Both the position numbers and the translations under genes were made by a program. The notes under the pieces are model-generated. The model was not told where the DNA came from. It saw nothing but the letters and a program-made list of their open reading frames with translations, and made no database searches. From assembly GCA_963790205.1 (NCBI GenBank), contig CAWBNQ010000001.1:1120001-1184000 (forward strand): a DNA stretch of 64,000 nt. Direction: 5' to 3'. Shown here piece after piece: positions 13,807 through 23,317 of this stretch (positions are counted from its first letter, which is position 1; each line of letters starts with the position of its first letter). This stretch comes from Nitrospirota bacterium (GTDB lineage: Bacteria; Nitrospirota; UBA9217).

Positions 13807-13824
13807 TATATTCTCCTCCATTCC

Positions 13825-13910
13825 GCAATCCGAAATCGCCAATCCGCAATCGAATAAATCCCCATCGAATTGCTTGACAAAAACAGGCCGTATACTATAA
13901 TCGATCAGAA
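13825..13910 (+). repeat. Copy 1 of an ~85-bp direct repeat carrying a TTGACA-N16-TATAAT promoter
   Basis: Matches 15731-15815 with 5 substitutions and 1 indel by eye. TTGACA at 13874, TATAAT at 13896. Confidence 0.9.
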
Positions 13911-13956
13911 CTACCCACGAAAGAAGAATTACTTTCCCCTGGATTTGAAAGTATTG

Positions 13957-14268
13957 ATGCTGGGAGAGCGAAAATTGCTGGTCCCGAATGCTGAAAAGGT
14001 GAACATCACAAGGGACACCCTCACCGTTGACTTGAGCGACGGAAGGACCATTTCCGTTCCGCTCGCATGGTTCCCTAGACTGCTCCATGCCACGAACCAG
14101 GAACGCAAGCATTGGAAGCTTATCGGCAAGGGGCAGGGCATCCACTGGGAGGACATCGACGAGGACATCAGCGTCGGAGGACTGCTTACGGGAAGGCCGT
14201 CAGGGGAAACGCAAGAATCTTTCAAGAAGTGGCTGGAGCGGCGACAAACCAAGCGCAGGGCGCATTGA
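13957..14268 (+). CDS. DUF2442-family protein (putative antitoxin)
   Basis: LTVDLSDGRTISVPLAWFPRLLHAT...GIHWEDIDEDISV. Confidence 0.85.
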   Translation: MLGERKLLVPNAEKVNITRDTLTVDLSDGRTISVPLAWFPRLLHATNQERKHWKLIGKGQGIHWEDIDEDISVGGLLTGRPSGETQESFKKWLERRQTKRRAH

Positions 14269-14292: not shown

Positions 14293-14949
14293 ATGCTGCG
14301 ATTTCAAAGACCGCCGGATGCTGTGTTTCAGGCTATACTGCGCGATAGCATGGATTTTTCAATCGACTTTATCCATATTCTGATTGAGAATAACGAATAC
14401 GACGAGTCGCGCGCGAGAGAAGACATGAAGTCGGATTGCCCCGCGATGGCAAAAGTATTCACTCCGTCGCTTGCCCGGACCACGCTGCTGAAATTAAGAA
14501 AGTGTCTGGACAGGCCTGAAATATATTCTCTGAATAACTACCATTATCTCCTCCTCTTTGACGCAATTGCTTATTATGCCGACATACACAATGATATGAT
14601 TCCAATGGCGGAAAGCAGGGGAGAGAGAAAAGAAGCGTCCTTTGTGGACCCATTTTACATTGAAACAATTGACGTGGACGGCCTTCTTGGGTTGTATTTT
14701 TTTGACACGGATTTTTTAACCGACGCGGAAACGATGCTGAATGTTCCGGACTGGTTTAGAGCTTCATACAGCCCGGAAACGTTTGGTTTGTCTCTGGGAA
14801 TGTTGCCGCATGACGAGGAATTGGAACTGAAAATCGATACGGATGAAGATGCGGGCTTGTATAAGGTGACTCCGTCCGATTACTTCGGCCCGAAATCAAA
14901 GGTATATCCTGATTTTGATTATTGCCATGACCAGCATCCTGAAAAATAA
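14293..14949 (+). CDS. Acidic hypothetical protein
   Basis: 218-aa ORF with RBS-like AGGTGA. No recognised motif. Confidence 0.65.
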   Translation: MLRFQRPPDAVFQAILRDSMDFSIDFIHILIENNEYDESRAREDMKSDCPAMAKVFTPSLARTTLLKLRKCLDRPEIYSLNNYHYLLLFDAIAYYADIHNDMIPMAESRGERKEASFVDPFYIETIDVDGLLGLYFFDTDFLTDAETMLNVPDWFRASYSPETFGLSLGMLPHDEELELKIDTDEDAGLYKVTPSDYFGPKSKVYPDFDYCHDQHPEK

Positions 14950-15063: not shown

Positions 15064-15336
15064 ATGCCGGTGATAAAACCCATTTCCGACCTGCGCAACA
15101 AGGCGAACGAGATCTCGGACCTCGCCCACAAGCTGAATGAACCCATCTTTATAACCAAAAACGGCGAGGGCGACATGGTCGTTATGTCCATGGCGCGATA
15201 CGCGCAGTTTCAGTTGAAGCTCGACCTTTTCAGCAAACTTGCCGTGGCCCAAAACCAGATCGCCTCCGGCGACAAGGGGAGAACGCTCAAGCAGGTCATG
15301 ACGGACCTCAGGAAAAGGCTTCATGAGCCCGCGTAA
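15064..15336 (+). CDS. Phd/YefM-family antitoxin
   Basis: IKPISDLRN...EPIFITKNGEGDMVVMS. Confidence 0.92.
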   Translation: MPVIKPISDLRNKANEISDLAHKLNEPIFITKNGEGDMVVMSMARYAQFQLKLDLFSKLAVAQNQIASGDKGRTLKQVMTDLRKRLHEPA

Positions 15337-15631
15337 GCTTGCGGTCAAGCTCCTCAGGATCGCGGAAGACGATCTCGCCGAAATCATCACGTTTATTGCG
15401 GAGGATGACATAGTCGCCGCCGAAAAGCTTGCCGACAAAATTGAGACCCGGCTTGCACGGCTCGCGGACCATCCCGCTCTTGGCAGAATCCCGGCTGAAG
15501 AGGAGCTCGCCCGGCTTGGCTACCGCTATCTTGTCGTTGACAATTATCTTGTTTTCTATACCGTGAGCGCACAGACAGTCCTTATCCACCGGGTCATTCA
15601 CGGCGCGAGAGACTACGTCAATCTGCTTTAG
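15323..15631 (+). CDS. RelE/ParE-family toxin
   Basis: AEDDLAEIITFIA...YRYLVVDNYLVFY...HRVIHGARDY. Overlaps the antitoxin gene. Confidence 0.92.
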   Translation: MSPRKLAVKLLRIAEDDLAEIITFIAEDDIVAAEKLADKIETRLARLADHPALGRIPAEEELARLGYRYLVVDNYLVFYTVSAQTVLIHRVIHGARDYVNLL

Positions 15632-15730
15632 CGGGGCGCTGGAAATATTCCGCATTCCGCATGACAGTCGTCTTGCGTTTGAGCTTCCTGCACTCTGAAC
15701 TCTGAACTTTGAACTGCAATTAGCCAATCT

Positions 15731-15815
15731 GCAATCCGAAATCGCCAATCCGCAATCGAATAAATCCCATCGAATCTCTTGACAAAAGCAGGCCGTGTAC
15801 TATAATCGACCAGAA
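15731..15815 (+). repeat. Copy 2 of the ~85-bp promoter-containing direct repeat
   Basis: TTGACA at 15779, TATAAT at 15801. Confidence 0.9.
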
Positions 15816-15835
15816 TTGCATTGGGAGGTAAGTTC

Positions 15836-16156
15836 ATGAAGATCGACATTACTCAGCTTGCCGAGGATGAACTCATTGATCTCCACCGCCGAATCACCGA
15901 ACGCTTGCGTTTTCTGAGTCAAACACGGGCGCACCATAAGATGCTGGAATTCAAGGTGGGAGATCGGGTGAGCTTCAAACCGGACGACCGTCCTGCGCTT
16001 TGTGGCGTGCTGACCAAGTATAACAAAAAAACAGTCACGATCATTACCGACAACGGGGAGCACTGGAACGTCGCATCGGGGCTCCTGACGTTGGCGAAGG
16101 AAGTGAAAGCTTCGGAAAGTAAGCAGTCAAACGTCATTCAAATGCCCAAGCGGTAA
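15836..16156 (+). CDS. Hypothetical protein (possible SH3/KOW-like beta-barrel)
   Basis: GGAGG RBS. FKVGDRVSF...GVLTKYNKKTVTI...WNVA. Confidence 0.75.
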   Translation: MKIDITQLAEDELIDLHRRITERLRFLSQTRAHHKMLEFKVGDRVSFKPDDRPALCGVLTKYNKKTVTIITDNGEHWNVASGLLTLAKEVKASESKQSNVIQMPKR

Positions 16157-16265: not shown

Positions 16266-19200
16266 ATGGGAATTAAATTGCATGAACTGTTAATTAACAA
16301 GGATTCATCAAGCGTAAAAGCATATCTGCAGGAATTGCCCTCGCACGAAAAGGGGGATGCATTCGAAAAACTCCTCGCCGAGCTTTACCGGGGCAATGGC
16401 TGGCTCGTTTCGGTCCAGGGCGGTCGGGGCGACGAAGGCGCGGACATTCTTCTCTATCATCCCAAGTCTCCTCAGACCGTTTCCTTCATCGTTCAAGCCA
16501 AGAACCACGCAAAACCTCTCACCCTGGACCAGACTCGCATCGAGCTCATTAAATTTGAACAACAGGCGGCACCCCGCTACAAGTGTCAGCAGTTCCGTAT
16601 CGTCGCGATTAACGGTTTCGTTCAAGAGGCAGACAAACTGGGACAATTCAATATTCTGCTCGACTCCTGGAGCTATGTAGAATCTCTGCATAAACGTTAC
16701 GACCCGGGCATGAACGCAGAGCCCAAAATTGAGTTGTACGCTCACAACCGCGCAACATATGAGAATATCCAGGACCTTTGGCAGGATAATGATCATGTCG
16801 CAGTAATACAGGCCACCGGCACAGGCAAGAGCTTTCTGATCGCGCAGCCTTTGGCCGACTTCCAGGGTAAACGCAAGATCGTCCTCGCCCCGTCTCATTT
16901 CATACTCGACCAGCAGAAATCCAAGGCGCCTTGGGCCAATGAAAAAACTACATACTGGACCTATGCGGGCCTTGCGCAAAAGAGTGAAACTGCGGTTAAA
17001 GCCCTCAAGTGCGCCCTTATCGTGCTCGATGAGTTTCATCGGTGTGGTGCCGATGTGTGGGGCAAGAGTGTTCAGATGCTGCTCGATACTCATCCTGATG
17101 CAAAGGTCCTCGGTACAACAGCAACACCCATCCGCTACCTGGATGAGAACCGGAACATGGCTGAAGAGCTTTTCGACGGTGTGGTGGCAACAGAGCTTTC
17201 CCTTGCCGAAGCTATCGTCAAGCGTATCCTGCCAGCCCCGACGTACATTAGTGCCCTTTATACAATGGAAGAGGAGGTTCGCAATCTTCTCACTGATATA
17301 GAGGCAAGCAAAAGACCTGAAGAAGAAAAGGTGGCGCTTAGGGCTGAGATACAAGCTCTCAAAGTCGATTGGGAAAAGACCTCGGGTATACCCGAGATAC
17401 TAAAAAAACATCTGCCCTCTGGCATCAATAAACTGATAGTTTTTTGCAGAGACCAGCAGCATCTCGACGAGATGGAGATTGAGGTGCAGAAGTGGTTCCA
17501 GAAGGCCGGGGTGCACCATTTTAGGGAAAAGTATCGGGTCATTAGTGCAGACCCGGCGAGTAAGAAAAACCTGCAATGTTTCAAGGATGCTGACGACAAG
17601 GATACTGTACATCTACTCTTCGCCATCGATATGCTGAACGAGGGTTTGCATATACCTGAAGTCGGCGCAGTTATCCTCCTCAGGCCCACAGTGAGCCCTA
17701 TAATATTCTACCAGCAGATCGGTAGATGCATCGAGGTAGGCAAGGACCACACGCCGATTATTTTCGATTTGGTCAATAACTTCCAGAACCTCAGGGTGAC
17801 GGATTTTCTTGTAGATCTTCAAATAGCAAAAGAGGAAGAGAAGCGGAAGCGGTCAGCATTCGATTTGGAAGATTATGCTCCTGGAATCCACATAGAAGAA
17901 CTTACCCGGCCGATCGAAGCGATATTCGAGTCTATTTACGAGCGCCTTAGCCCATGGGAGACGCAATTTGCCGCGCTGCTAACATTCAAGGAAAAGCACG
18001 GACACTGCAATGTTCCTCAGTCCTATGCCGATAATCCTGCTCTCGGTACATGGGTTAATAATCAGCGTGCATTGAAGAAAAAGAATCGTTTGCCAAATGA
18101 CCGCATACACCGATTAGAGACAATCGGCTTCGTCTGGGGTCCGCTTGCTGATACTTGGGAGCAGATGTTTGTGATGCTTCTCGCATTCAAGGAAAAGCAC
18201 GGACACTGCAATGTCCCTCAGTCCTATACCGATAATCCTGCTCTGGGTCCGTGGGTTAATACGCAACGTGCATATAAGAAAAATAATCGATTGCCAGAAG
18301 ACCGCTTGCAACGGTTGGAGAAAACCGGCTTTATTTGGGATCTGCTCGATGACGCTTGGGAGCAAATGTTTTCTGAGCTCCACAAATTTAAGGAAAAACA
18401 TGGGCACTGCAATGTTCCTCAGACGTATGATGATAATCCTGCTCTCGGGACATGGAGCAACAATCAGCGTACATTGAAGAAAAAGAATCGATTGCCAGAA
18501 GGTCGTGTGCATCGTTTGGAGGAAATCGGCTTCATCTGGGGTCCGCGCGATGATGTTTGGGAGCAAATGTTTGCTGCACTTCGCGCATTTAAGCAAAAAC
18601 TGGGACACTGCAATGTTCCGACGGTTTATAACGATAATCCCGTTCTCGGCAGATGGGTTGATATGCAGCGCCAGATGAAGAAAAAGAATCGATTGCCAGA
18701 AGAACGTGTTCAGCTGTTGGAAAAAATCGGCTTCATTTGGGATCCGTACGATGACGCTTGGGAACAAATGTTTGCGGCACTTCGCACTTTTAAGGAAGAA
18801 CATGGACACTGCAAGGTTTCTAAGTCCTATGCCGAGAATCCTGCTCTTGGTACCTGGGTGGGTACGCAGCGTGTGCGAAAGAAACGACTGCCAGAAGACC
18901 GCGTACAGCGATTGGAGGAAATCGGCTTCATCTGGAATCCGTACGATGACGCATGGGAGCAAATGTTTGTTGCGCTTCGCACGTTTAAGCAAAAACAGGG
19001 ACACTGCAATGTTCCTGCGGTTTATGACGATAATCCTGTTCTCGGTAGATGGGTTAATACTCAGCGTTCGATGAAGAAAAAAAATCAACTGTCAGAAGAC
19101 TACATGCGGAGACTGGAAGACATCGGCTTCATTTGGGATCTGCTAGATGACGCCTGGGAGCAGATGTTTGCTGCACTTAGCACGTTTAAAAAAAATAATC

Positions 19201-19367
19201 GACACTGTAATGTTCCGGCTTTGTATACCGACAATCCTGTTCTCGGTTCATGGGTTAATAGGCAACGTTCGATGAAGAAAAAGAATCGATTGCCAGAAGA
19301 CCGCGTTCAGCGACTGGAGGAAATAGGATTTGCTTGGACTCTGCGAGAAATAAGTAAGAAGACGTGA
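16266..19367 (+). CDS. Mrr-like restriction endonuclease + SF2 helicase + 7 helicase-associated (HA) repeats
   Basis: GDAFEKLL...DEGADIL...VQAK (Mrr D..QxK). ATGTGKS, DEFH, TATP, MLNEGLH, QQIGR helicase motifs. Seven WEQMF..L..FK..HGHCNVP..LG.WV..QR..RLE.IGF.W units. Confidence 0.9.
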   Translation: MGIKLHELLINKDSSSVKAYLQELPSHEKGDAFEKLLAELYRGNGWLVSVQGGRGDEGADILLYHPKSPQTVSFIVQAKNHAKPLTLDQTRIELIKFEQQAAPRYKCQQFRIVAINGFVQEADKLGQFNILLDSWSYVESLHKRYDPGMNAEPKIELYAHNRATYENIQDLWQDNDHVAVIQATGTGKSFLIAQPLADFQGKRKIVLAPSHFILDQQKSKAPWANEKTTYWTYAGLAQKSETAVKALKCALIVLDEFHRCGADVWGKSVQMLLDTHPDAKVLGTTATPIRYLDENRNMAEELFDGVVATELSLAEAIVKRILPAPTYISALYTMEEEVRNLLTDIEASKRPEEEKVALRAEIQALKVDWEKTSGIPEILKKHLPSGINKLIVFCRDQQHLDEMEIEVQKWFQKAGVHHFREKYRVISADPASKKNLQCFKDADDKDTVHLLFAIDMLNEGLHIPEVGAVILLRPTVSPIIFYQQIGRCIEVGKDHTPIIFDLVNNFQNLRVTDFLVDLQIAKEEEKRKRSAFDLEDYAPGIHIEELTRPIEAIFESIYERLSPWETQFAALLTFKEKHGHCNVPQSYADNPALGTWVNNQRALKKKNRLPNDRIHRLETIGFVWGPLADTWEQMFVMLLAFKEKHGHCNVPQSYTDNPALGPWVNTQRAYKKNNRLPEDRLQRLEKTGFIWDLLDDAWEQMFSELHKFKEKHGHCNVPQTYDDNPALGTWSNNQRTLKKKNRLPEGRVHRLEEIGFIWGPRDDVWEQMFAALRAFKQKLGHCNVPTVYNDNPVLGRWVDMQRQMKKKNRLPEERVQLLEKIGFIWDPYDDAWEQMFAALRTFKEEHGHCKVSKSYAENPALGTWVGTQRVRKKRLPEDRVQRLEEIGFIWNPYDDAWEQMFVALRTFKQKQGHCNVPAVYDDNPVLGRWVNTQRSMKKKNQLSEDYMRRLEDIGFIWDLLDDAWEQMFAALSTFKKNNRHCNVPALYTDNPVLGSWVNRQRSMKKKNRLPEDRVQRLEEIGFAWTLREISKKT
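17955..19340 (+). repeat. Intragenic tandem repeat, 7 x 201 bp (one unit 195 bp)
   Basis: Unit-initial TGG codons at 17955, 18156, 18357, 18558, 18759, 18954, 19155. Confidence 0.95.
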
Positions 19368-19440: not shown

Positions 19441-19704
19441 TCAATGTAGAAATTTCTTCTTAGACCATAGGAGAAAAATAATTGTTATCAACGATGCCAA
19501 TATTTTGATGCTATAATCCTCATTTTCAAAAATCGTTAAAAAGGCAATATGTTCTGCTTTATAAATGTACAGAGCCAAGTTCAGGAGAAGAACTCCTATC
19601 ATTGTTCTCCTGAGATCATCCGTCGAGGCAAATTCTATGCCCCAACCTTGGCCCCAATAAATCAAAATAACAAACAATTTGATCGATTGAGGCCGCCTTA
19701 TCAT
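19441..19704 (-). CDS. AT-rich small membrane ORF or gene remnant
   Basis: 87-aa hydrophobic ORF in low-GC DNA, ending at the terminator. Confidence 0.3.
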   Translation of the reverse strand: MIRRPQSIKLFVILIYWGQGWGIEFASTDDLRRTMIGVLLLNLALYIYKAEHIAFLTIFENEDYSIKILASLITIIFLLWSKKKFLH

Positions 19705-20100: not shown

Positions 20101-22305
20101 ATGTCCATCGAAAAGAAATTCGACATATCGTTCATCTCATCCCTTGCCCTGCGTGAAAAACAGATACAGCAGAATTACCGGCCCATCATCGCCGTGCATA
20201 AGTGGTTTGCGCGGAGGCCGGGGACGTTGTTTCGCGGGCTGATTCTTTCCGAGTTCGGAGACAAACCTCTCCGGGATACGTTCTATTCGTCCAACAATCT
20301 CTCCGGTCTTACGATACTCGATCCCTTCATGGGTGGCGGCACTCCTCTTCTTGAAGCGAACCGTCTTGGCTGTGATGTGATTGGCTATGACATCAATCCC
20401 ATGGCGTATTGGATTGTGCGGCAGGAGATCGAGCATCTGGACTTGCAGGCTTATCGCAAGGCGGCGGATGATCTCATCAAAGGGCTGGAGCTGGAGGTCG
20501 GGAGTTATTACAAAACGACCTGCCTTGAGTGCGGATCGAGAGCAGCCGATGTTAAGTACTTTCTCTGGGTAAAGCAACATACCTGCACTAGCTGCGGCAA
20601 GGCGAACGATCTCTTCCCTGGTTATCTTCTTTCTGAAGACAGACGGCATACGGAGAATGTGTATGTGTGCGCAGCCTGCGGCGAGCTTCACGGCGCAAAG
20701 GACCGGGCCAAACCGGGCAAATGCAAGTCCTGCGGAGAACGGATCGTCATCGAAGGTCCGGCGAAAAGAAGCAAATATGAATGCAAGCACTGCGGCAAAG
20801 CAAACTCATATTCATTCAAGCCTGAGCATCCGCCGATTCACCGGATGTATGCCATGGAGTATCACTGTAAAAAATGCAAATCGCAGCACGAGGGAAGGTT
20901 TTTTAAGAAGCCTTCGCGGATGGATCTGGCCAAATATACGGTGGCCTCAAACCGGTTGAGCAGTATGAAGACCTTGTTTGTGCCCGATGATGTGATATTG
21001 GGGGGCGATGAGACAGCACGGCTCCATCGATGGGGGTACCAGAAATATAATGAGATGTTCAATGCGCGTCAGCTTCTCGGGCTGGAGCTGAGCTGCCGTG
21101 TAATTGCGAAAATTACAAATGAGCGCGTGCGTAATGCGGTTGCTACCAATCTTTCGGACTTGCTTCGATATCAGAACATGCTTTGCAGGTATGATTCAAT
21201 GGCGCTTAAGTCCCTCGATATCTTTTCGGTCCACGGTTTCCCCGTCGGGCTTGTGCAGTGCGAGTCGAACATTCTTGGGATCGTTAACGGCGGCGGGGTG
21301 AACATCGGGAGCGGCGGGTGGGGCAACATCATCGACAAGTATTATAAGGCCAAAGCATATTGCGATGCGCCTTTTGAGATACGGCACGAAGGGGGACGCA
21401 AGATCCAGGTCCCTATCCCTGATGAATGGATCGGGGACCGGCGTAATGGGACTGTCCCTCTGAGCAAACGTCATGCCCGGCTTCATAGCCAAAGCTCCAT
21501 GGAGGCGGACATTCAACCTGGGTCAGTAGATGCTGTCTTTACCGATCCGCCTTATTACGGGAACGTGCAGTATGCTGAGCTGATGGATTTTTGTTACGTC
21601 TGGCTCCGGAAACTTATTGACGATCCTGCATTTAAACACCACACGACACGGGACCAGCAGGAGCTTACCGGCAACGTTAACATGGAACGGGGGCTCGATC
21701 ATTTCACCGAAGGACTGTCAAACGTGTTCCAGAAAATGGCCCTGGCCTTAAAGCCCGGCCACCCTTTAGCGTTCACCTATCATCACAACACTCTCGAAGC
21801 CTACTATCCGATCGCTATTGCCATGCTCGATTCAGGCCTGGTCTGTTCCGCGTCCCTGCCGTGCCCGGCCGAGATGGGGGCTTCGATCCATATCAGCGGG
21901 ACGGGATCATCCATTGTCGATACGGTCTTCGTTTGCCGGAGCACAGGCTCTGTGCCTTCCCAATGGCTCGCAAAGACCGCGGGCGCCCTTGCCGGGTTGG
22001 TGAAAGACGATATCGAAAAGCTGCGGAAAGCGGGTCTGAAAGAAACACGCGGCGATGTTCGGTGCATTATCTACGGACACCTTATCCGACTTGCTGTCTG
22101 GGACCTGCGCCACGGATGGGACAAGACGAAACCAACAAAGGAAAAAACAGCGGCAATCGCAGCGCAGATACAAGAGTTCGGAGGGTTATTAGCGGTCGAA
22201 GAGTCTTTAAGCGAGGGTATGGAGCAGCCGGCCTTGGTACGAACTTCCGCTGTCAGGGAAGAAACTCAAAAGTATGGAGCGAGCGACGATGAAATTTCCT
22301 TTTGA
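20101..22305 (+). CDS. DUF1156-type amino (N6A/N4C) DNA methyltransferase with Cys-rich insert
   Basis: HKWFARRP, DPFMGGG (motif I), TDPPYY (motif IV), several CxxC pairs. Confidence 0.9.
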   Translation: MSIEKKFDISFISSLALREKQIQQNYRPIIAVHKWFARRPGTLFRGLILSEFGDKPLRDTFYSSNNLSGLTILDPFMGGGTPLLEANRLGCDVIGYDINPMAYWIVRQEIEHLDLQAYRKAADDLIKGLELEVGSYYKTTCLECGSRAADVKYFLWVKQHTCTSCGKANDLFPGYLLSEDRRHTENVYVCAACGELHGAKDRAKPGKCKSCGERIVIEGPAKRSKYECKHCGKANSYSFKPEHPPIHRMYAMEYHCKKCKSQHEGRFFKKPSRMDLAKYTVASNRLSSMKTLFVPDDVILGGDETARLHRWGYQKYNEMFNARQLLGLELSCRVIAKITNERVRNAVATNLSDLLRYQNMLCRYDSMALKSLDIFSVHGFPVGLVQCESNILGIVNGGGVNIGSGGWGNIIDKYYKAKAYCDAPFEIRHEGGRKIQVPIPDEWIGDRRNGTVPLSKRHARLHSQSSMEADIQPGSVDAVFTDPPYYGNVQYAELMDFCYVWLRKLIDDPAFKHHTTRDQQELTGNVNMERGLDHFTEGLSNVFQKMALALKPGHPLAFTYHHNTLEAYYPIAIAMLDSGLVCSASLPCPAEMGASIHISGTGSSIVDTVFVCRSTGSVPSQWLAKTAGALAGLVKDDIEKLRKAGLKETRGDVRCIIYGHLIRLAVWDLRHGWDKTKPTKEKTAAIAAQIQEFGGLLAVEESLSEGMEQPALVRTSAVREETQKYGASDDEISF

Positions 22306-23317
22306 AGTTCCTTTCGAGGAAGTGCAGGCGGACCTGGACCAGTATGTAACAGCCGTGTTCTCCGGGCTGGAATCGGAATTTCTGACCATGCCCAAGGGGG
22401 CCGGGTTCATCGATTATCCGGTATTCGAGCAAGGCTATGAGGCCCTCAAGCAGGCGACAGCAGGGTTCCGCAACTTCACGCCCGAGGCTGTGAAGAGTTG
22501 TGTGCTCTCGAATCCCATATCCCTGATCGTCATTCGCACCATGCTGGGCTTTACTCCGCCGGAGTGGGCTTATGTGGCCTCGCAGCATGCGAAAATAGAC
22601 GTGCCCCAGAATTTCGTCCGCACTCTGGACAGGAAAGTCCGCGTGACCCCTCTCTCGCCGCTCAAGGCCAAGGGCGCGACAGCTGAGCGGCTGGAAGCAT
22701 TGGTGAACGTGGCGTGTTCATTGCTCTCGGCAGGCGTTCCATCCACGAGCCCTGACAGGCTTCATCGACTCGACAAGGCGGACACCAGGTCGGGGCTGGA
22801 CAGCATCAGGGCCATGGCGGATTTGGGCGCGCCTTATGCTATGCTCCTCTATGAGCGGTTCCTCGGCAGGCCCTTTGCCGGACATCGAGATTCGGTGAGC
22901 GAACTGATCGGCGACATTCTCGAATCGGCAATCGAGAACGTATTGCACAAAGCAGGCATTACGGCCAGGAAAACGAAGCGGGCTGAAAAAATCCAGGGCT
23001 TTGATCAGTCTCCGGATTTCATCATCCCGAGCGAGTTCAACCCGCAAATCATTATCGAAGCGAAGATCACAGAAGACGATGGAACGGCCCGCGATAAAGT
23101 TACGCGCATCCAGCATTTGGGCGAGCTGAGCATGGCAGGCCAGCCGAAGGGAAAACCGAAATATGAAGTCATCGCCTGCATAGCGGGCCGAGGGTTCGGG
23201 GTCCGCAGGGAAGACATGAAAAAGATGCTTCTCGCCACGCGAGGGAAGGTATTCACGCTGCAGAACCTGGATAAGCTTGTGGAATGTACAAGGCTGAAGG
23301 AATTCAAAACAAAGTAA
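22289..23317 (+). CDS. Putative type II restriction endonuclease (PD-(D/E)xK)
   Basis: GDILESAIE...SPDFIIP...IIIEAK. Overlaps the MTase stop. Confidence 0.75.
   Translation: MKFPFEVPFEEVQADLDQYVTAVFSGLESEFLTMPKGAGFIDYPVFEQGYEALKQATAGFRNFTPEAVKSCVLSNPISLIVIRTMLGFTPPEWAYVASQHAKIDVPQNFVRTLDRKVRVTPLSPLKAKGATAERLEALVNVACSLLSAGVPSTSPDRLHRLDKADTRSGLDSIRAMADLGAPYAMLLYERFLGRPFAGHRDSVSELIGDILESAIENVLHKAGITARKTKRAEKIQGFDQSPDFIIPSEFNPQIIIEAKITEDDGTARDKVTRIQHLGELSMAGQPKGKPKYEVIACIAGRGFGVRREDMKKMLLATRGKVFTLQNLDKLVECTRLKEFKTK

Follow-up and report, generated by a model that had tools for sequence, protein, structure and literature searches.

Can an array of repeated HA domains aim a nuclease at a DNA sequence? 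This question is raised by one gene in a 64,000-nucleotide stretch of the genome of a Nitrospirota bacterium (GTDB lineage UBA9217; assembly GCA_963790205.1, contig CAWBNQ010000001.1, positions 1,120,001 to 1,184,000), called the window below. The gene encodes a protein with an Mrr-type PD-(D/E)xK nuclease, a superfamily 2 (SF2) helicase-like motor and a C-terminal array of seven HA units (Table 1). A preliminary description had proposed a single-gene defence enzyme whose array reads nucleic acid in a modular way. In the analysis, the residues on one face of the second HA helix were found to vary between the units of one array and to be inherited with each unit, which does not by itself prove that bases are read. 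The favoured reading, whose chances are seen as evenly balanced, is a stand-alone, restriction-like nuclease with a translocating motor, directed to a long site in double-stranded DNA that the protein itself reads, and nearer to zinc-finger arrays than to transcription activator-like effectors (TALEs) or PUF proteins. Binding of the HA array to double-stranded DNA is considered very probable. Modular, base-specific read-out is moderately probable, and a simple additive code is doubtful.

Nuclease, motor and closest known systems

Mrr_cat (PF04471) was matched in Pfam at amino acids (aa) 30-125 with 32.9 bits (cut-off 21), and the catalytic D...(Q/E)xK of Mrr nucleases is present as D60, Q77 and K79. 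The ResIII, DEAD and Helicase_C families cover aa 155-489, with Walker A at 183-189, DEFH at 255-258 and TAT as motif III. The nuclease region is present in 115 of the 120 best homologues, and 96 of these retain D..[QE]xK; Walker A, DExH and motif III show no change in 117-119 of the 120. Motif VI reads QQIGR. Its first Arg is invariant, and the second Arg of QxxGRxxR occurs in none of 274 matched helicases (a pooled set, duplicates included), so that the translocase activity assumed in the favoured reading is not assured.

The nearest solved motor is that of SauUSI (7CLG, E 8e-22), followed by a Type I R subunit and then RadD. This kinship argues against RNA, which had been allowed as a target in the preliminary description. 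In published accounts, SauUSI is given the order nuclease, SF2, coupler and recognition domain (PMC7913695), and target binding activates its translocation and cleavage (PMC7913695; bioRxiv 2025.10.16.682607). The protein in question shares this order within a single polypeptide and likewise lacks a methyltransferase. It differs from SauUSI in that the Mrr PD-(D/E)xK domain replaces a phospholipase D (PLD) nuclease, that seven HA units replace one SRA domain with no SRA/DUF3427 reader left, and that motif VI is short of its second Arg. The Type ISP enzymes LlaGI and LlaBIII also begin with a nuclease of the Mrr family, which precedes an SF2 translocase; here the HA array takes the place of their half with methyltransferase and target recognition domain. 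The protein would act much as SauUSI or the front half of a Type ISP enzyme does, but judged by its sequence it is a member of neither group, and it is not a TALE. A fused DNA methyltransferase, as in Type ISP and IIG enzymes, was not found in it with Pfam, nor was one recognised among the Pfam families listed for its 120 best longer forms.

In a Type IV enzyme, the HA array would recognise modifications of bases or backbone within a loose context, and cleavage of the modified DNA would fall to the Mrr domain; such an enzyme would fit the lack of a cognate methyltransferase. A PADLOC-DB 2.0.0 search, suggested earlier as a check for a defence system, gave no full-length system-protein match; its best matches span motor residues ~247-528 only, and the presence of mREase_IV among them (E 6e-19) is in favour of this type. 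Furthermore, cleavage of modified DNA is frequent among Mrr-family enzymes, and SauUSI achieves it via its SRA domain. According to PMC12191111, HA occupies the DNA-binding position of a PLD nuclease and counts as one of the C-terminal domains that give these nucleases, described as readers of modification, their specificity. Still, the Type IV explanation is considered rather unlikely: no SRA, PUA or EVE family was matched in the protein with Pfam, a single modification would not require 4-14 units with unit-specific faces, and Myb and helix-turn-helix (HTH) arrays substitute for HA on the same motor.

The variable helix face

HA (PF03457) was matched in seven stretches (E 1e-159, 519 bits against a curated cut-off of 28.4), which make up the C-terminal 470 aa. 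Tandem Repeats Finder reported a 201-nucleotide period over 17982-19324 with 6.7 copies and 76% matches. The seven W..QR motifs quoted in the preliminary description are exactly correct. The seven units described there were confirmed in number but are not near-identical, as they share 41-49 of 65-67 residues (61-73% identity). Nor do all have 67 aa: unit 5 lacks two residues (65 aa), and unit 7 reaches 70 aa with its tail. No second HA array was found in this genome.

In a two-unit AlphaFold2 (AF2) model of units 3 and 4, made with a 145-row alignment (predicted local distance difference test (pLDDT) 93.8, predicted template modelling score 0.70), each unit has three helices and the W..QR motif falls in helix 2. 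A four-unit single-sequence model was discarded with a pLDDT of 50. A helical wheel places positions 32, 35, 36, 39 and 43 in the sector of 140-240 degrees, on the other side from L30, W33, V34 and Q37. With VIA-align, 2KTA (Bacteroides vulgatus BVU_0683) was the top of 48,161 chains (Z 7.8, root-mean-square deviation 4.5, 73 aligned; runner-up Z 4.5), and the HA sequence matches it with E 2.6e-12. It is the same HA domain, and one relative of the family (L078, 753 aa, four HA units) comes from the same species. Unlike in 2KTA, seven units stand here behind an intact nuclease and the helix face was quantified. The paper on 2KTA (Mills et al. 2013) already names DNA binding in its title.

Among the HA structures found, no DNA complex was present. 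No homeodomain, Myb or DNA-bound analogue was among 50 VIA-align rows, and hhalign of HA against the five Myb units of L173 gave a probability of 0.1; neither result proves that the folds differ. Foldseek against the PDB gave no significant match, and the ESM Atlas outside PF03457 clusters gave no lead (best score 0.75). BFVD matches were giant-virus and phage HA proteins, one with a template modelling score of 0.81 over two units. A match to an Abd-B homeobox (E 0.018) was dismissed as chance, its alignment falling outside the variable helix. The spacing x32-W-V-x35-x36-Q-R-x39 equals that of homeodomain residues 47-W48-F49-50-51-R52-R53-54, with base contacts at 47/50/51/54 around W48 and R53. 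Since the structure search gave 2KTA only, we infer the groove-binding pose rather than observe it. In the work on 2KTA, specificity is reported to vary within the HA family.

Within this array alone, the W..QR residues are barely, at best borderline, hypervariable, and their special status shows family-wide only; the earlier observation of hypervariable positions is confirmed in part. Within-array homogenisation (fixation index, Fst) was measured on 90 de-replicated arrays with 679 units and 35 variable columns. The lowest values (0.03-0.07) were obtained for columns 35, 32, 36, 22, 39, 23, 64 and 63, the first five of which had 0.03-0.06, followed by 43 and 40 with 0.09-0.10, and the remaining 25 variable columns ranged from 0.11 to 0.36. 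The helix face (32/35/36/39) was less identical than control columns within 114 of 121 arrays. For the comparison of orthologues, 208 arrays with 506 orthologous pairs in 16 groups were used. At scaffold identities of 0.6-0.7, 0.7-0.8 and 0.8-0.9, the helix face was identical to 0.43, 0.58 and 0.79 between orthologous units and to 0.17, 0.23 and 0.39 between sister units. Control columns were equal in both, in part by construction. In 22 hold-out arrays, the helix 2 face was lower in identity than the helix 1 face in 15 and the helix 3 face in 18.

Several observations weigh against a face selected for reading. In the array itself, position 35 is N in five of the seven units, random four-column sets from 25 variable columns match the divergence of 32/35/36/39 in 5.7% of cases, and the ratio of non-synonymous to synonymous differences (pN/pS) of these positions is 0.95. 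Columns 9, 15, 23, 25, 51, 56 and 62 likewise show four residues; pN/pS is 1.29 in loop 22/23, 0.61 over the rest of the surface and 0.02 for core columns. Across the family, the helix face also shares its behaviour with loop 22/23 and linker 63/64. In the orthologue comparison, control columns sat in the binning set and test columns were partly picked on the same data, and the helix face was above control in only 8 of 15 groups. It is thus no better kept than other orthologue surface, so that purifying selection on a fixed specificity is unsupported. The hold-out effect is small (0.13 vs 0.17 and 0.23). One point in favour is a pN/pS of 1.72 in young unit pairs (44 of them, taken from 10 further arrays), but the choice of pairs with low pS inflates this value and local pS is also raised (0.53).

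These data bear on a non-specific DNA grip, with an array that adds only affinity or processivity, in which face variation reflects relaxed constraint and only the basic residues matter. The pN/pS near 1 in this array, an orthologue helix face conserved equally to other surfaces and the large number of residue pairs at positions 35/36 are what a grip would predict. Relaxed constraint poorly explains, however, why the helix face, loop 22/23 and the linker alone escape homogenisation, and unit-specific signatures stay in order in the P0003 group, whose 14 members have arrays of 6-11 units and hold up to eleven units in order. A mere grip is considered unlikely.

D and E make up 4-6% of the helix 2 face vs 30-37% on other helices, and the exclusion of acids recurs fully in the hold-out arrays (5.6% vs 30-34%). 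N/Q/H/R/K/S/T account for 65-67% of the variable face, and the helix 2 segment has a net charge of +4 to +6. In the AF2 model and the family alignment, the variable residues form one exposed, acid-poor helix face, which supports the preliminary description. A protein sensor, which would recognise phage proteins with its variable face and set off both non-specific degradation of DNA and abortive infection, is very unlikely with such a composition. Hydrophobic residues do occur at positions 35/36 (2-5% each), and diversifying repeat surfaces are typical of pattern receptors such as leucine-rich and tetratricopeptide repeat arrays; the replacement of HA by Myb and HTH arrays and the DNA binding named in the 2KTA title tell against such a sensor.

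In 89 arrays, 188 distinct residue pairs were counted at positions 35/36, with SN, GT, SH, ST and NT as the commonest. This vocabulary is skewed yet open, unlike TALE di-residues, and argues against a small code. Co-variation of 32-36 (z 5.2) and 35-36 (z 5.1) ranked second and third of 325 pairs. It may be ordinary helix coupling, because 52-56 (z 6.8) ranked first. Coupling between adjacent units was weak, with a top z of 4.0 in 81 tests. The TALE/PUF-like reading proposed earlier was not upheld: the units have 67 aa and three helices with at least four variable positions, unlike the 33-36-aa one-base units with a two- or three-residue code. Closer parallels are C2H2 zinc-finger arrays (KRAB-ZNF, PRDM9), which, like TALEs, combine a near-fixed period, a homogenised scaffold, diversified contacts and changes in copy number. 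The fold is unrelated to either, and a two-residue code is lacking.

The seven units form one clade (95/85) that excludes the units of P0009, a relative with an 83% identical core; the bootstrap is not fully settled. The array was thus rebuilt or homogenised after that split. P0010 is without the front units of P0002, P0024 and P0059 have four units in common at 97-98% and differ in the rest, and internal unit pairs with at least 90% identity occur in 7 of 208 arrays. Of the repeat shuffling suggested in the preliminary description, changes in unit number by duplication, loss and replacement were confirmed; re-ordering was not seen, as orthologous arrays are colinear in the five sets inspected.

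Relatives, neighbours and exchange of the tail

From 8000 scored candidates, 4591 matched the family. The best 120 relatives include 114 with 4-14 HA units, and 95% of the 772 intervals between units measure 64-72 aa. The architecture is widespread and carries the automatic annotation 'Helicase associated domain protein'. A genome scan with the single protein gave no match, while a scan with an alignment succeeded. The gene was absent from 60 of 60 related genomes at E 1e-40, and its GC content is 48% vs 55% in the genome. By domain content, the family can be considered wide, patchy and stand-alone, with a predicted Mrr nuclease, a SauUSI-like SF2 motor and an HA array, and free of methyltransferases.

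The genomic context was analysed in 33 loci with a nuclease region and an HA array, taken from 77 genome and 79 metagenome loci. No conserved neighbour was found in them: the most frequent families, resolvases and integrases, occur in four loci at most. Only one locus has a DNA methyltransferase no further than two genes away. PADLOC-matched neighbours (E 1e-20; 33 hand-picked neighbours out of 170 covered) mark, as a raw count, at least 8 of the 33 loci, namely, Dsr1, SoFic, IIG, DarTG with GajA, PDC-S02, Drt3b with type IV and two GmrSD-like systems. Three further loci carry toxin-antitoxin or Mrr genes. Homing-endonuclease-like behaviour was set aside, the 33 loci sharing no insertion site. 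The defence enzyme proposed from the sequence is thus supported in part, by the lack of a conserved partner, the nuclease motif in most relatives, the absence from related genomes and defence neighbours at some loci, and a defence role is judged fairly probable. About half of the 33 loci have neither a defence nor a mobile neighbour, however, and the nuclease motif is decayed in 19 of 115 close relatives. These decayed nucleases and the mostly nuclease-less relatives heading polysaccharide operons show a family that is not purely defensive. The group with decayed nucleases (P0035, P0058, P0065 and 16 more) is largely from Bacteroidota where named and has 8-14 HA units.

The tail behind the motor is exchanged in other relatives. 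The same motor subfamily ends in five Myb repeats in L173 (7995-9965), and in L186, L188 and L181 the same motor carries sigma4/HTH repeats and NUMOD1 in the place of HA. This swap probably marks the tail as an exchangeable DNA reader and is the strongest indirect argument for reading of double-stranded DNA. L173, L174, L181, L186 and L188 are viral contigs with motor fusions lacking a nuclease, some with AP2-like ends as judged by eye. Other C-terminal repeats unnamed by Pfam follow Mrr-SF2 in L088 (96-3032), L015, L047 and L093 and SF2 in L121 and L123.

In published work, HA domains sit at the DNA-binding position of TniQ proteins. TniQ-HA of Tn7-like elements and TtrA of Streptomyces resemble the present protein by tandem HA domains at the DNA-targeting position of an ATP-driven machine, but serve transposition or conjugation and not cleavage. 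Their HA specificity is likewise called unproven in the literature. A fixed-target test with TniQ-HA covered 301 genomes from a single gut family; 9 of them gave 14 TniQ matches, all lacking HA, so that no pairs of array and target were obtained. Long TniQ proteins in L248, L250 and L254 have tails of Cys/His zinc-ribbon-like repeat arrays (by eye), another modular targeting array.

Mostly nuclease-less SF2-HA relatives were found at 96 loci of gut Firmicutes (L059-L083, L094-L164). A tyrosine recombinase lies directly before the helicase in 45 of these, in both orientations (30 and 15), and of the 69 loci whose flank is long enough, 46 have polysaccharide genes within the next four open reading frames (ORFs). 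L060 (8511-9972) differs from L128 by a 1462-bp inversion between 37-bp inverted repeats, and the segment carries its own tyrosine recombinase. The position of the helicase in these operons is that of UpxY/LoaP antiterminators. Visual inspection of the DNA around the helicases of the polysaccharide operons for a cis target showed recombinase palindromes only. A motor and HA array that work without cutting keep a regulatory role alive and widen the value of a code.

These relatives, the HA arrays of TtrA and telomeric TniQ, 383 matching Streptomyces plasmid records and the resolvase and integrase neighbours at several loci would suit a site-directed DNA motor for mobility or regulation with an optional nuclease. 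For the protein in the window, such a non-defensive role is quite unlikely: its nuclease motif is intact, as in most relatives, the nuclease-bearing group has no conserved context, and the gene lies after a Phd/ParE pair and before a methyltransferase with its own DpnII/BanI-like nuclease, a type II restriction-modification (RM) pair.

In the literature searched, with subscription journals and supplements outside the search, neither Mrr-SF2-HA proteins nor a code of HA domains turned up as the subject of an experimental study. Term searches gave no HA content in PMC10293859 and PMC12839542, and there was none in PMC9122126. HA helicases are mentioned in anti-CRISPR operons in PMC13551039.

Possible mode of action and genes nearby

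In the favoured reading of a sequence-aimed translocase-nuclease, each unit would likely put its variable second helix into the major groove. By analogy to SauUSI, binding of the site would turn on ATP hydrolysis, the motor would translocate or loop the DNA and the nuclease would break it, probably as a dimer or via colliding enzymes, because one PD-(D/E)xK site cuts one strand. The target site may have 15-25 bp if ~3 bp per unit are assumed from zinc-finger and Myb precedent. A site of this length would be missing from the host genome, so that self would be spared and a methyltransferase unneeded. Specificity may drift by duplication, loss, replacement and point change of units, as in zinc-finger arrays, and a context-dependent grammar would be expected rather than one base per unit.

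If the array reads sequence, it would provide a third route to tell self from non-self, in which protein modules recognise a long site missing from the host and methylation and guide RNA are dispensable. It would also offer a new programmable scaffold for DNA binding, of which nature supplies thousands of variants. If the array does no more than hold DNA, the protein is an uncharacterised nuclease-helicase of an ordinary kind. With the four-position hypothesis and the orthologue sets, the question of HA binding becomes directly testable. On a wider view, which is held to be doubtful, HA arrays would correspond in bacteria and viruses to zinc-finger arrays, as natural readers of long DNA sites whose code could be learnt unit by unit, Mrr-SF2-HA proteins would be single-gene, methyltransferase-free immune nucleases that retarget by rebuilding their arrays, and the same reader would aim TniQ-HA transposons and phase-variable regulators of capsule operons.

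Table 1. Positions of the gene, its parts and nearby features, in window numbering
Feature	Positions	Strand	Remarks
Whole gene, 1033 aa	16266..19367	+	Mrr nuclease, SF2 motor, coupler, 7 HA units
Mrr-type PD-(D/E)xK nuclease, aa 30-125	16353..16640	+	PF04471 above cut-off; E34, D60, Q77-x-K79
SF2 helicase-like ATPase, aa ~155-505	16728..17780	+	Pfam, motifs, SauUSI 7CLG as closest solved relative
Charged linker, putative coupler between motor and array	17781..17954	+	Interdomain position, conserved columns in alignment A1
HA unit 1, aa 564-630	17955..18155	+	Positions 32/35/36/39 = T,N,N,A
HA unit 2, from aa 631	18156..18356	+	Positions 32/35/36/39 = P,N,T,A
HA unit 3, from aa 698	18357..18557	+	Positions 32/35/36/39 = T,N,N,T; in AF2 model
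HA unit 4, from aa 765	18558..18758	+	Positions 32/35/36/39 = R,D,M,Q; in AF2 model
HA unit 5, from aa 832, 65 aa	18759..18953	+	Positions 32/35/36/39 = T,G,T,V
HA unit 6, from aa 897	18954..19154	+	Positions 32/35/36/39 = R,N,T,S
HA unit 7 with short tail, from aa 964	19155..19364	+	Positions 32/35/36/39 = S,N,R,S
Terminator-like 11-bp hairpin past stop codon	19404..19428	.	Consensus match only; T-run scored on minus strand
Type II-like RM pair	20101-23317		Zinc-ribbon DUF1156-related methyltransferase and DpnII/BanI-like nuclease without Pfam hit
Phd/YefM-ParE pair	15064-15631
DUF2442 gene	13870-14268
Family-less ORF	14293-14949
Family-less ORF	15821-16156
Family-less ORF	19441-19704	-
93-bp direct repeat, two copies	13818-13910 and 15724-15815		91% identical

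A partnership with the downstream methyltransferase was rejected, as this enzyme has its own nuclease and no such neighbour is conserved. Upstream of the gene, the two copies of the 93-bp direct repeat bracket the DUF2442 gene, an orphan ORF and the Phd/ParE pair. The repeat consists of a short element with ~10-14 copies in the genome and a strong sigma70-like promoter unique to these two copies. One of the three family-less ORFs encodes a hydrophobic protein of 87 aa and lies in an AT-rich gap.

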